From: a virus
Lineage: Duplodnaviria; Heunggongvirae; Uroviricota; Caudoviricetes
DNA length: 43,465 nt
Reading direction: 5' to 3' (one strand)
Virus record (IMG/VR): IMGVR_UViG_2563366823_000003
Each line of letters begins with the position of its first letter. The first letter of the stretch is position 1. Shown in pieces: positions 26,860-31,636 of this stretch. Below the pieces are notes generated by a model that saw nothing but the letters and a program-made list of their open reading frames with translations, did not search any database and had not been told where the DNA came from. Position numbers and translations under genes: made by a program.

Positions 26860-27111
26860 CTAACAGGATGCTCTGACTCGCAATTCATCCTGCAGTTTAT
26901 CATTTCCCATAATGTCACTTACCCTCATCGGTAAAAAAATTGCCTTTCGACCATTACGATACATCATTGATTTTTTGGTTTCAGGGAAGTAATCCATTTC
27001 GACTATAACTGACAGGTCATCACGACGTATGACTGCATATTTGCTACTAAATGGTTTCTTTATTTTTTCCACGATGCCTCCAGGTTTATAAGTACAAACG
27101 GTTATATCCAC
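26860..27111 (-). CDS. hypothetical protein (83 aa), AT-rich
   Basis: ORF in the low-GC region next to hokD; no recognisable motifs. Confidence 0.35.
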   Translation of the reverse strand: MDITVCTYKPGGIVEKIKKPFSSKYAVIRRDDLSVIVEMDYFPETKKSMMYRNGRKAIFLPMRVSDIMGNDKLQDELRVRASC

Positions 27112-27379
27112 ATAGAGACAAAAATATTAATCTGAAAAATATTTATTTCACGTCGTATATTTGATTATTTAATGTGCAGGTGCAATGACTTTTATTTTTT
27201 GTTGTGTATATAATCAAATATATGGTTATTTTTCACCCTGCGCATTCAGCGCGCAACAAAAAACCCGCCGAAGCGCTGAGGGATCCCCATAAATCAGCGC
27301 TGAAGCGGGTTAAGTGCGGGTGCGTTGAGGATGCCTGACTCATCAGAGGTGGCGAGGGATTTCTCCCTCGCCTGGTCTC

Positions 27380-27535
27380 TTACTCCTCAGGTTCGTAAGC
27401 TGTGAAGACAGCGACCTCCGTCTGGCCGGTTCGGATTCGTACCTCGCAGAGGTCTTTCCTCGTTACCAGTGCCGTCACTATGACGGTTAAACAGATGACG
27501 ATCAGGGCGATTAACATCGCCTTTTGCTGCTTCAT
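27380..27535 (-). CDS. hokD: Hok/Gef-family membrane toxin (type I toxin-antitoxin)
   Basis: 51 aa MKQQKAMLIALIVICLTVIVTALVTRKDLCEVRIRTGQTEVAVFTAYEPEE matches recalled HokD/RelF; hairpin-rich 3' UTR and in-frame upstream extension. Confidence 0.8.
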   Translation of the reverse strand: MKQQKAMLIALIVICLTVIVTALVTRKDLCEVRIRTGQTEVAVFTAYEPEE

Positions 27536-27677
27536 AGCCTGCTTCTCCTTGCCTTTCGGCACGTAAGAGGCTAACCTACATGTGCAAAGCATGAAATTGG
27601 CCTCAGATTAATGTTAAGCGTCTTGCCGGACGCGTAATGTTAACTGGGGCTTTTCTCTATCTGCCTTTGGTGTTCGT

Positions 27678-27717
27678 GCCCGAGGCAGATAGCCTCAAGC
27701 ACCCGCCGTGATTCTAC
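27678..27717. repeat. left copy of a ~40-bp imperfect direct repeat flanking the AT-rich cargo island
   Basis: gcccgaggcagatagcctcaagcacccgccgtgattctac versus gcctgagacagacaacctcaagcacccgcagcaattctac at 29698-29737, ~82% identity. Confidence 0.6.
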
Positions 27718-27942
27718 AAAAACATTACCCACCTTTCCAGCAATTCACAACAACTCCATGCAAATAGTAAGTAGAATAATAAGTTATTAGTATTAGCAAT
27801 TTACTTAGTTTCTAATTTGTGCCAATGATTTTCATTTTTGCATGAAAAATACCTTAACATTTTATATTTACTTACTATTTGTAAGCCCCATCAGTTCTTT
27901 CTGATGGCGGCTGGTATTTCAGTTCCAGATATAGTATATGCT

Positions 27943-28971
27943 TTACGCCTTAATAGGGTTAATCACATTTCCGCTATCCGTACCATAGTATTTTTTTGTA
28001 GTCATGCCTTGTTTATAATAATCATTTAACAGTTTGAGAAAGTTTCTTCCTTGCCTCTCATCTTCTATGACTAATTTACCATGCTCATTGGTCTTAAACT
28101 CTTCGTTCTGAAACATTTTTAACACATCATTCATAGCTTGAACATCATTCTTTTCCAGAGCCGTATGGTTACCTTTCTCAGCGATATGAGTGAGAATTTT
28201 TCTCAGTGATGGCTTATGAAGAATAGCTTGTTCAATAACATCTAAACCTTCAATAAGATCAAGTTCTTTAATTGTATTTAATGTTTTTTGTGCAGCTTCT
28301 GTAAACTCAACCTCCAAGCCTACAATAGCCTCAAAACTTTTCTTATGAAATACATAAAATTGATCTTTTATATAAATACAATCGATTTTGTCATCAAAAT
28401 TGACTGCGCTGCCATCAAATGATCTTAACTCTTTATCTGTTTTATCAAACAAAGCGAATACGCGCTGAGTCATATTTTGTGGTTCATTTGTTGTGACTTT
28501 CCCCCTGCTGATTTTTCGGAAAGAATAAGTGACGTCAGCCCCCTTTTGGACTTTAATACAATAGGCCCACAAATCATTCTGAACCTCAGCAAGAGAGGTA
28601 AGTACAACTGGTTTATCATTCTTTATATCGTTATTAATAACTTTTGAAAACGATATCGCGTTATTCATAGCATAGGCATAAATCTTATTGTCAATATCAT
28701 CATCAATAACAGTATACTTTTTCATCACAATATCATCTTTCGAAGCATGAGAAATAATCTGGTTTGATAAAGTATACTTAAAAAATTTAGCAATATCTGG
28801 AGCGATAGGAGCTTTAATGATTTTAAAATCGAATTTATCAACAACTCTTGCGGTTCTACTCATACCCGCTTTAAGATGTCTAGTAATGAAATACAACGAT
28901 ATTTTCGCCGCATCATCATCCTTAAGTTGCTCAGCATACTCTAATAATTCTTCAAGCTTTAACATTTTCAT
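27943..28971 (-). CDS. 342-aa soluble hypothetical protein; candidate defence effector (KwaB-like?)
   Basis: Very AT-rich ORF; its ATG overlaps the stop of the upstream membrane ORF (ATGA); Kiwa assignment is hypothesis only. Confidence 0.55.
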   Translation of the reverse strand: MKMLKLEELLEYAEQLKDDDAAKISLYFITRHLKAGMSRTARVVDKFDFKIIKAPIAPDIAKFFKYTLSNQIISHASKDDIVMKKYTVIDDDIDNKIYAYAMNNAISFSKVINNDIKNDKPVVLTSLAEVQNDLWAYCIKVQKGADVTYSFRKISRGKVTTNEPQNMTQRVFALFDKTDKELRSFDGSAVNFDDKIDCIYIKDQFYVFHKKSFEAIVGLEVEFTEAAQKTLNTIKELDLIEGLDVIEQAILHKPSLRKILTHIAEKGNHTALEKNDVQAMNDVLKMFQNEEFKTNEHGKLVIEDERQGRNFLKLLNDYYKQGMTTKKYYGTDSGNVINPIKA

Positions 28972-29583
28972 TCCTTATGGGATTCAGCATAAAAAAGTTT
29001 TGGGCCCACGTCCTCAACATCAAGAAGATCATCTTCCTCCAAATACTTGGATTTAGTCAAAACCATACCAGTGCGTTTTTTGTCGCTTTCTAAATCCAAA
29101 TATGTAACTTGATATAAAGTATAATTAATACTTATTGTAGGATTTATAAGTATCATGCTTGAATTAATATATATTAAAGCCGTTACCGTTAACAATATTG
29201 CTATAGGTATAACATTAGTTAAATGTGGATAGGTCCTGAAATACAAACGGAATTATATATGTAAAAAGATAGCTTATTGATTCATTGTTTTTATTTTCAA
29301 TATCTATAACTCTTACAGTTCTACCACTAGTGGCGCATCGACGTTTTATATTTTTTAAAAAAATTGTTAATCCTACAATACCAAATAATGATAATACACC
29401 AATGACACTGACCGCGCCAAAGTATTTAAAGAAAATAGTTAATGATTCAACACTTATACCTTTCCAATTTAAATAGCTTCTATAAGTATACAATTGCACA
29501 AAACACATGATAAAGAATAGGGGAAGGTATGACACTATAAATAGCGAAACTCTAGCACCTAAATGTAGTTTATTTACTCTCAT
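28968..29583 (-). CDS. multi-pass membrane protein (~205 aa, 4 TM) apparently split by a frameshift; KwaA-like?
   Basis: Two overlapping ORFs (29215-29583 and 28968-29252) each with two hydrophobic helices; second frame has no ATG at its head (TTG). Confidence 0.45.
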
Positions 29584-29697
29584 AACTACCCCACAGCCTA
29601 CACGTCTAGTATTTTATGTTATTTCGAATAATTATGCATCAGATTACCATCCTACAATTGTGCATAAAACGAGCATTTTGCTGATTTTTCTGCGGAT

Positions 29698-29737
29698 GCC
29701 TGAGACAGACAACCTCAAGCACCCGCAGCAATTCTAC
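29698..29737. repeat. right copy of the direct repeat flanking the cargo island
   Basis: See the left copy at 27678-27717. Confidence 0.6.
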
Positions 29738-29845
29738 TTAACTCTCCTTTTCCCGCAAACCGTTTTTATCCCCAGCGGCAAATCGAATACACCACCAGCG
29801 CCACCGCCATCGCAATTCCTACCGTGGTGAATGCTTCAGGCCAGG

Positions 29846-30361
29846 TCATCGCAAAACATCCTCCGCGCTTATCAGTTCGTTCCGCTTCAGGTAGTCCATC
29901 GCCTTCTCCGGTAATTTGCAGTCCGGCTTAGCTTTTTCCAGTTGGCTGGCCAGTCGTTTAACCCACATTGTTAATTCGCTAACCTGATTGCCGGATGCTG
30001 ATGGATTGTCGGCTTTACCCAAAATGGCAGCACAGCAGACCTCTTTGAGCACCCAGTCAATGGCGTCTTTCCATGCTCCGGTTTCAACTGGCGGATTCTC
30101 ACGCCGTACCTGTTCATAAAAGCGCACAGCTTTAACCAGTCCTTCTGATGTCACCGGGGCTGGCGGGGCCGTGAATAACGCCTGAATTTCATAGTTTGGT
30201 CTGTCGTTACAATCTTCTTTTGTCGGGACATATTTCCAGTCACCAGCCCACTGCTTCCCCTGAAAGTCTGTAACGTCTTTTTTCACGTAGCGATATCGCC
30301 ATGCAACTGGTTTTGCCTGCCCTGCCGTTTCATGCCCTTCCTGATAATTAATCTCGCTCAT
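29846..30361 (-). CDS. hypothetical phage early protein (171 aa)
   Basis: ORF with ATGA start/stop overlap to the upstream small gene. Confidence 0.5.
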   Translation of the reverse strand: MSEINYQEGHETAGQAKPVAWRYRYVKKDVTDFQGKQWAGDWKYVPTKEDCNDRPNYEIQALFTAPPAPVTSEGLVKAVRFYEQVRRENPPVETGAWKDAIDWVLKEVCCAAILGKADNPSASGNQVSELTMWVKRLASQLEKAKPDCKLPEKAMDYLKRNELISAEDVLR

Positions 30362-30534
30362 TCATCGCCCCACTCATCACAATATGCTTCTACCGGAGTT
30401 TTTCCTGCTTCGTAGTCATCACTCCAGGCTTCAGCATCAGCAGCACTTCCACCACGTAACTCTGCATAGTTCATTAACAGTTCATGCCATTCTTCAAAAC
30501 TGACGTTGTATTTAGTTGAACCAAAATCAGCCAT
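30358..30534 (-). CDS. small hypothetical protein (58 aa)
   Basis: MADFGSTKYNVSFEEWHELLMNYAELRGGSAADAEAWSDDYEAGKTPVEAYCDEWGDE; below track cutoff; coupled to both neighbours. Confidence 0.4.
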   Translation of the reverse strand: MADFGSTKYNVSFEEWHELLMNYAELRGGSAADAEAWSDDYEAGKTPVEAYCDEWGDE

Positions 30535-30709
30535 TTTGTTCTTCCTCTTCGTCTTTTATTTCGTGATATGAATAATTGCAGTAGTTAAAGAAAATTTCTT
30601 TTGCTTCGTCATGAATTTCATCAGGTGTTGCGTCATCGTCCACTTCGAATACATCCTCAAAATCTCCACCAGCTATTCCCGTTTCAATAATTATTTTGAA
30701 CTTTCGCAT
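30527..30709 (-). CDS. small acidic hypothetical protein (60 aa)
   Basis: ORF in a chain of coupled small early genes. Confidence 0.35.
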   Translation of the reverse strand: MRKFKIIIETGIAGGDFEDVFEVDDDATPDEIHDEAKEIFFNYCNYSYHEIKDEEEEQNG

Positions 30710-30799
30710 TTCACTACCGCCATTTCGAACGGCCTCCTGATGTTTTGAGGGTGCAGAAATCCCTCCGGTTAAGGATTATATTTTCAATAATAATGTTGA

Positions 30800-31213
30800 T
30801 TATTCGGGGCCAAGTTTTGTCGCCCTGCGTATCCGCGCTTTCACATTACGCTCAATCTGAATTAGCTTTTCTATATTTTTACGTCTTTCCCGCTCCTCCT
30901 GACGCAATTGTTTTACATCATCTGCCAGTCTGGTTTCTCTTTTCGCCACAGAGAGCATCCAGTCAAATGGCTCCACAACTGCGCCACATATTTTGCAGCG
31001 GACCTGACGCTCTTTTTCATCAACCCTGACAGAAGCGTGATGGCAATATGGTTTCTCCGATGGCTCATAAAGAAAATTAACCTGATTACGTGGGTCATCA
31101 TCTTTTACCGGAAATAAAACAATATTCCCGGACTCATCTTCTGGGGTTATTTCCACGTCACTCTCCTTTGATGCGAATGCCAGCGGCAATTGAAGCCTGA
31201 TAGCTGATTTCAC
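30800..31213 (-). CDS. hypothetical protein (137 aa) with Cys/His cluster
   Basis: ORF with C-H-H...C-x2-C arrangement suggesting a small Zn-binding module. Confidence 0.45.
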   Translation of the reverse strand: MKSAIRLQLPLAFASKESDVEITPEDESGNIVLFPVKDDDPRNQVNFLYEPSEKPYCHHASVRVDEKERQVRCKICGAVVEPFDWMLSVAKRETRLADDVKQLRQEERERRKNIEKLIQIERNVKARIRRATKLGPE

Positions 31214-31636
31214 TCACAGCACCACCTCCTGAAAATTCCCCTGATAAAACGCCAGCACGCGCTGCATAACTTCGCTCTTCCGGCACTCGCTACAGATTAT
31301 GTTCTGACGCCTGTCATAACGACGTATTTCTCCGTCTGGCAATGACCAGATTAGGTTTGGATCTACCACAACCGGTTTCTTCACCTTTGCCCTCGATAGC
31401 TTTTTGCGGGCGTTTTGCCAGTCTTTACGAGCCTGTTCAGAGGGAAATAACCCGTAGCCAGAGTTGTATACATCACCACTAGCAACCAGCTCTCTGGCGA
31501 GAACACTCATCAGATATCTTGTCGCACCTGTTTTCGCTTCCAGTTGCCGTAACGTCTCGCGACCGCTCAGACGTACAAGTTCAACAACCTGCCCTTTAAT
31601 TTTTTCCCGCTCTTCTGGTGTAAATACTTTTGCCAT
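31214..31636 (-). CDS. hypothetical phage protein (140 aa)
   Basis: ORF adjacent to the upstream gene (ATG follows its stop). Confidence 0.45.
   Translation of the reverse strand: MAKVFTPEEREKIKGQVVELVRLSGRETLRQLEAKTGATRYLMSVLARELVASGDVYNSGYGLFPSEQARKDWQNARKKLSRAKVKKPVVVDPNLIWSLPDGEIRRYDRRQNIICSECRKSEVMQRVLAFYQGNFQEVVL

Follow-up and report, generated by a model that had tools for sequence, protein, structure and literature searches.

Organization of the kwaA-kwaB locus

The window analysed here is a 43,465-nucleotide stretch of viral DNA (IMG/VR record IMGVR_UViG_2563366823_000003), and on its minus strand lie a kwaA gene that is broken into two reading frames and, immediately downstream of it on the same strand, an intact kwaB gene (Table 1). 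In the ORF list, the 5' part of kwaA is a 122-aa ORF that ends with a TAA stop codon at 29217-29215. The second frame has a stop codon at 29255-29253 and is open thereafter as far as a TGA at 28970-28968; its earliest start-type codon is a TTG at 29246, which is not preceded by a Shine-Dalgarno sequence, and no ATG follows until 30 codons into the frame. These are the boundaries that the initial annotation had described (an ORF ending at 29215, and a frame open from 29252 with only TTG at its head), and all of the coordinates hold, on the minus strand. The kwaA TGA overlaps the first ATG of kwaB, at 28971 (ATGA). Translation of kwaB from this codon would give 342 aa, and from a second ATG at 28965, which has an AAGGA motif six bases ahead of it at good spacing, 340 aa.

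Judged by its sequence matches, the two-gene locus, formerly noted only as a candidate defence operon, is the Kiwa anti-phage system. The upstream and downstream pieces of kwaA match complementary parts of the 205-position PADLOC KwaA profile PDLC00212 (E values of 1e-58 and 3e-39, respectively; Table 1), and are therefore halves of one protein rather than a chance juxtaposition of two. KwaB matches PADLOC PDLC00223 over its full length (E 1.5e-159) and has the DUF4868/KwaB domain (Pfam PF16162, 60.1 bits against a cut-off of 26.3). A local Pfam-A scan of both KwaA fragments gave only a sub-threshold match to LrgA, and the KwaA family PF28043 appears in precomputed annotations only; there is also a sequence match to the KwaA of known structure in PDB entry 9mrg. 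RefSeq annotates the kwaA-kwaB pair likewise in a related Escherichia coli sequence (L001), and the exact KwaB protein of the window is present on 624 contigs. Both the Kiwa system and this KwaA protein are already known and annotated.

Table 1. Features of the kwaA-kwaB locus in the window, and structural elements of the restored KwaA protein
Feature	Position	Strand	Basis or content
kwaA 5' part	29215..29583	-	TM1, TM2, intracellular loop, TM3, FN, stop; PADLOC PDLC00212 positions 2-122
Lesion, one inserted base	29224..29224	-	Alignment to intact alleles
kwaA 3' part, +1 frame	28968..29252	-	PADLOC PDLC00212 positions 116-204
kwaB, intact	27943..28971	-	PADLOC KwaB PDLC00223; Pfam PF16162
Low-GC kwaA-kwaB cassette	27534..29744	-	BLAST vs L001 and L002; composition profile; annotated regions
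KwaA TM1	residues 8-33		AlphaFold model of restored KwaA
KwaA TM2	residues 45-86		AlphaFold model of restored KwaA
KwaA beta-hairpin	residues 88-97		AlphaFold model of restored KwaA
KwaA TM3	residues 99-113		AlphaFold model of restored KwaA
KwaA loop	residues 114-120		AlphaFold model of restored KwaA
KwaA TM4	residues 121-140		AlphaFold model of restored KwaA
KwaA beta-strands	residues 155-201		AlphaFold model of restored KwaA

A Kiwa cassette within a Rac-like prophage

The element that hosts the locus is a Rac-like lambdoid prophage of E. coli, with an integrase gene, recE/recT and ydaT at the high-coordinate end of the window and tail and baseplate genes at the low end. The cassette is placed between the replication genes and the late-gene region with its Q-type antiterminator-like gene, and DUF1367 and YbcO genes are also found around it. 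The GC content of the cassette is about 25-36 %, against about 50 % in the surrounding DNA, and its 2211 bp are 99.3 % identical to a region of a different lambdoid prophage in other E. coli (L001 and L002). In that arrangement, where the cassette adjoins ydfW and dicC (e.g. Ecol_745, NZ_CP015074.2), it encodes KwaA WP_001265627.1 and KwaB WP_000915483.1. The restored KwaA of the window is 100 % identical to the former and the window KwaB is one residue apart from the latter, with A271 in place of V271; the window differs in having the extra base at 29224 and a different lambdoid backbone. The flanks differ too: a 171-aa ORF and hok/sok in the window correspond to QueH and an ISNCY remnant in the Ecol_745-type prophages. 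Searching the kwaA region against a phage collection with blastn in its distant mode gave no match.

Directly downstream of kwaB there is a hok/sok toxin-antitoxin module (27380-27704, minus strand), comprising a sok RNA (RF01794, 113 bits, 27530-27704) and a 70-aa Hok/Gef ORF (27592-27380). It is inside this module, at 27534, that the 2.2 kb of DNA in common with other E. coli prophages come to an end.

The lesion is a single inserted base

The initial annotation had proposed that a single frameshift would join the two ORFs into a four-TM protein of about 205 aa, and had called for alignment to intact homologues. This alignment places the lesion within the interval of 29215-29252, as one inserted base at 29224 (T on the plus strand, A on the minus strand; CCAC[A]TTTAAC), which sits between kwaA codons 120 and 121 and falls outside any homopolymer. 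In DNA alignments to two intact E. coli alleles there is a single gap column, at 29224, and the same is true of alignments to five further contigs (L006-L010). Removal of this base yields a 204-aa protein that is 100 % identical to WP_001265627.1, and in the AlphaFold model this protein has four TM helices, so that the proposed joining of the two ORFs is borne out. As encoded, residues 1-120 of the 122-aa product are identical to those of the intact protein and are followed by the wrong residues FN and the stop codon, while the 3' part, in the +1 frame, is identical to residues 121-204. Apart from the inserted base, kwaA of the window differs from the common allele, of which two examples were aligned, by two substitutions only (29233 and 29049), both unique to the window lineage and both synonymous in the original frame. 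Elsewhere in the gene, at about 29351-29363 (minus strand), a T7A6 homopolymer pair covering the codons for residues ~74-78 (FLKNI) is likely to be prone to indels; it is intact here.

Intact alleles predominate among relatives. The cassette is carried by 156 complete E. coli genomes, the DNA of which is 99.1-99.5 % identical to 28960-29600 of the window (99.5 % in nearly all), and in essentially all of them kwaA encodes one 204-aa protein, WP_001265627.1, to which RefSeq sometimes gives the name 'KwaA family protein'. The insertion was found in none of the 155 complete E. coli genomes matched by a 71-nt query spanning the junction, and the intact protein is present on at least 1000 contigs. 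Pattern scans of genomes and metagenomes, designed to catch both alleles, returned only the wild type (one GTDB genome contig and four metagenome contigs). Beyond E. coli, 120 clusters of homologues with 53-100 % identity, including proteins from Aeromonas, Yersinia, Enterobacter, Vibrio, Pectobacterium, Citrobacter, Shewanella and Photobacterium, consist nearly entirely of single ORFs of 199-229 aa that cover 97-100 % of the restored protein. The break immediately follows YLFTYxIPFVFQDLS, the motif that is best conserved in the family. Homologues arranged as two separate genes with the same boundaries, which would have spoken against a frameshift, occur in none of the 120 clusters, and the frameshift reading stands.

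Some other sequences recovered in these searches deserve mention in their own right. NZ_CP044403.1 (2651917-2652553; H109) is the sole complete E. coli genome in which the kwaA region is 3 nt shorter (637 nt, 99.1 % identity); no kwaA CDS is annotated there, and it may represent another disrupted allele or assembly indels. The wild-type contig L006 (JAGZPX010000007.1) is binned as a 'Veillonella parvula' MAG yet has the E. coli Kiwa cassette at ~99 % identity, and probably represents Enterobacteriaceae DNA that was binned in error. Within the WP_001265627.1 cluster (P0004, P0012 and P0015), E. coli has at least three further, independent KwaA truncations that are not partial sequences; they measure 138 aa, 174 aa and 179 aa, the second being cut at an A6 run near codon 168 and the third lacking the N-terminus.

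The insertion is present in other assemblies and on two haplotypes

Three other public contigs encode the exact 122-aa product; they come from NCBI and Logan assemblies and have been recorded in 14 samples (9+2+3). One of these (L004; Logan SRR631002, nine samples) is 100 % identical to the window over 27636-31289 (3654 bp), one (L003; NCBI GCA_910595065.1, two samples) has the same haplotype as the window, and one (L005; Logan SRR30349956, three samples) has a different haplotype. A look-up of the 92-aa second ORF led to one contig that was already known (L004) and to no new carriers. Since the insertion is found on three further contigs, an error private to the assembly of the window is excluded.

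L003 is from a close relative of the prophage in the window and has, in addition to the same kwaA frameshift, a nonsense mutation in kwaB (KwaB Y200*; L003 6619-7641). The L005 cassette has the identical inserted A and otherwise no substitutions relative to the wild-type contig L006 over 2106 bp, and is separated from the window (27639-29744) by nine substitutions, of which one lies a mere 9 bp away from the inserted base. The presence of the insertion on two haplotypes suggests either that it arose twice or that it was moved by a conversion tract of less than 184 bp.

Structural consequences for KwaA

Measured against the hallmarks of KwaA (about 200 aa, four TM helices and a cytoplasmic beta-barrel), the product as encoded, with 122 aa and three TM helices, falls short, whereas the protein read without base 29224 has all of them. 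The AlphaFold (AF2) model of the restored 204-aa protein (mean pLDDT 80.6) superimposes on the solved KwaA 9mrx_A with TM-scores of 0.78/0.82 (E 9.5e-10), and in the model the frameshift coincides with the junction of the loop and TM4 (Table 1). What remains in the 122-aa product is TM1-TM3 with the intracellular loop; TM4 and all of the C-terminal beta-strands are missing.

Discussion

Kiwa, which guards against phage infection or plasmid conjugation and needs both of its proteins to do so, is the natural point of comparison for the locus described here (e.g. E. coli O55:H7 RM12579; PDB 9mrg, 9mrr and 9mrx; PMC11785009). The two share their gene order with overlapping stop and start codons, the DUF4868/KwaB domain of KwaB and, once the reading frame is restored, the fold of KwaA, with four TM helices and a beta-barrel formed from ICL1 and the C-terminus; the locus of the window also rides on a mobile element, as some half of all Kiwa loci do. 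The window nevertheless represents a different sequence subtype (PADLOC subfamilies PDLC00212 and PDLC00223), with only ~22 % identity to the solved KwaA, and in contrast to the solved system its kwaA is broken after codon 120, so that the system is incomplete as encoded. We consider it very probable, on the analysis presented here, that a genuine kwaA frameshift inactivates this prophage Kiwa system.

The proposed course of inactivation draws on the published structure and mutants. Translation from the normal start codon ends two codons after the base inserted at 29224. The missing C-terminal part would have completed the cytoplasmic beta-barrel, probably the main docking surface for KwaB, and the missing TM4 would have contributed to the tetramer interfaces. 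[quoted passage not shown] With TM4 and the C-terminal strands lost, we infer that the KwaA-KwaB supercomplex cannot form and hence that defence would be lost even though kwaB is intact. The 3' half of kwaA is probably barely translated, its TTG having no ribosome-binding site and the stop codon of the 5' half overlapping only a four-codon dead-end ORF. Translational coupling of kwaB to kwaA would also be lost because ribosomes would stop 244 nt upstream, although kwaB keeps its own AAGGA site. Some features sit less easily with inactivation. In the window, the reading frames of kwaB and of the 3' part of kwaA remain open, and the two substitutions unique to its lineage are synonymous, which would also fit continued constraint, but two sites prove nothing; the break lies in an extracellular loop, where some membrane proteins tolerate splitting; and the fact that two haplotypes share one insertion might point to selection or a hotspot instead of a random hit.

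Pseudogenization was one of three explanations offered when the split was first noticed, alongside sequencing or assembly error and programmed frameshifting, and it is the one that the evidence favours: intact single-ORF alleles dominate, the part that is lost is essential for defence (PMC11785009) and a relative shows further decay in the form of KwaB Y200*. An artefact, with a truly intact kwaA in the genome, is a natural suspicion given that single-base indels are the commonest errors of assembly and that no complete E. coli genome shows the insertion. We regard it as extremely improbable, as three other contigs, from 14 samples, encode an identical truncated protein, one of them being 100 % identical over 3654 bp and another of a different haplotype, and the inserted base is outside any homopolymer. 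Programmed +1 ribosomal frameshifting or another form of recoding, by which full-length KwaA would be made from the split gene, is similarly hard to credit. It is true that, as in prfB (RF2), the protein would be recovered if ribosomes moved by +1 near an in-frame stop: a shift after ACA (Thr120) would yield exactly the wild-type sequence, the 0-frame TAA is only two codons beyond, and an AGGA is present upstream in the mRNA. The shift site is, however, absent from the homologues, nearly all of which are single ORFs, and all 155 of the 155 junction matches are without the insertion. Among the codons of the 29252-29215 overlap (AUU CCG UUU GUA UUU CAG GAC CUA UCC ACA UUU AAC UAA), none is a P-site codon able to re-pair in the +1 frame beside a slow codon; UUU_C precedes the common codon CAG, and the AAC before the stop cannot re-pair. 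The prfB shift needs a Shine-Dalgarno-like element at a spacing of about 3 nt. In kwaA the sole element of this kind, the AGGA, is 13 nt from the last sense codon, and the site thus differs from prfB in lacking a CUU_U-type slippery codon, an element at the 3-nt spacing and conservation in homologues. An Rfam scan of 27000-30000 (E<=1) found no recoding element, returning only sok and a chance snoRNA match, and folding of the RNA of 29280-29150 (z -1.0) gave no stimulatory structure. Nor is there an A/T run at the site at which transcriptional slippage might take place. Slippage at the upstream T7A6 run (about 29363-29351) was considered separately and rejected, since the intervening +1 frame contains several stop codons.

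A further possibility is that the gene has undergone functional fission, with both halves of KwaA being made and reassembling in the membrane. The precedent is the naturally split KwaB, found in 70 of 9,797 Kiwa loci (PMC11785009), in which a Kiwa component is likewise encoded by two adjacent ORFs; the break in the window is at the ECL2 loop between TM3 and TM4, and the 3' frame and kwaB are open in carriers of both haplotypes (L004 and L005), though L003, of the same haplotype as the window, has KwaB Y200*. In the published case, however, the split lies between two domains and recurs in lineages (PMC11785009), whereas that of the window is in KwaA, results from a rare single-base insertion and leaves the second half without a proper start. 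Indeed, the 3' half has only the TTG at 29246, with no Shine-Dalgarno sequence, and translation from the ATG that shares bases with the stop codon (TAATG) would run, in the third frame, into a dead end after four codons. A scan of 27400-29900 for promoters and terminators gave 12 promoter-like sites against 8.9 expected and no terminator, and is uninformative on an internal promoter for the 3' half. The two-gene arrangement is seen in none of the 120 homologue clusters, the allele is rare (known from three other contigs, when at least 1000 carry the intact protein) and kwaB has acquired a nonsense mutation in the sister contig. Fission that preserves function is thus very unlikely. Somewhat different is the suggestion that the inserted A marks a recurrent hotspot, or a selected loss-of-function off-switch, created for instance by quasi-palindrome template switching; this is compatible with inactivation, and we hold it to be a possible but rather unlikely origin of the allele. 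It draws on the identical insertion on the L005 haplotype, with one of the substitutions that distinguish the window only 9 bp away, and on the existence of other independent kwaA truncations in E. coli. In addition, AC-TT/AATGT becomes, through the inserted A, a perfect inverted repeat of 5 bp around a 5-nt loop (ACATT-TAACT-AATGT), and a quasi-palindrome template switch would give exactly such an insertion. The stem is short, however, and if single bases were inserted into kwaA at random, 8.2 % of them would likewise be part of a perfect stem of at least 5 bp, which means that the repeat is not significant alone; an inverted-repeat finder with a seed of 6 missed the 5-bp repeat, its sole results around the junction being two AT-rich palindromes further downstream. 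A short conversion tract (<184 bp) between cassettes explains the pattern equally well, as the haplotypes are visibly mosaic, and only two backgrounds are known for the insertion. The more far-reaching claims, that the inserted A is a hotspot repeatedly switching Kiwa off in prophage-carrying E. coli or that the locus is the first KwaA fission working as two pieces, are in our judgement quite improbable.

Set against the history of the cassette, the kwaA mutation is a recent event, and it is rare in the population. The substitutions that separate kwaA from the common haplotype are only synonymous, and those in kwaB are synonymous except for A271/V271, and the cassette was therefore under purifying selection until recently. 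The KwaB Y200* mutation in L003 would fit relaxed selection after the loss of kwaA.

In annotation, the Kiwa system of this prophage should count not as active but as disrupted and most likely inactive. Programs that look for defence systems and demand both genes will either overlook the locus or call kwaA from a fragment. The insertion on two haplotypes is a minor population-genetic curiosity, and the finding, an ordinary one, has no bearing on the open questions of Kiwa mechanism. It does provide a small data point on the speed at which prophage-borne defence cassettes decay, here by a frameshift in kwaA and then, in one relative, a nonsense mutation in kwaB.
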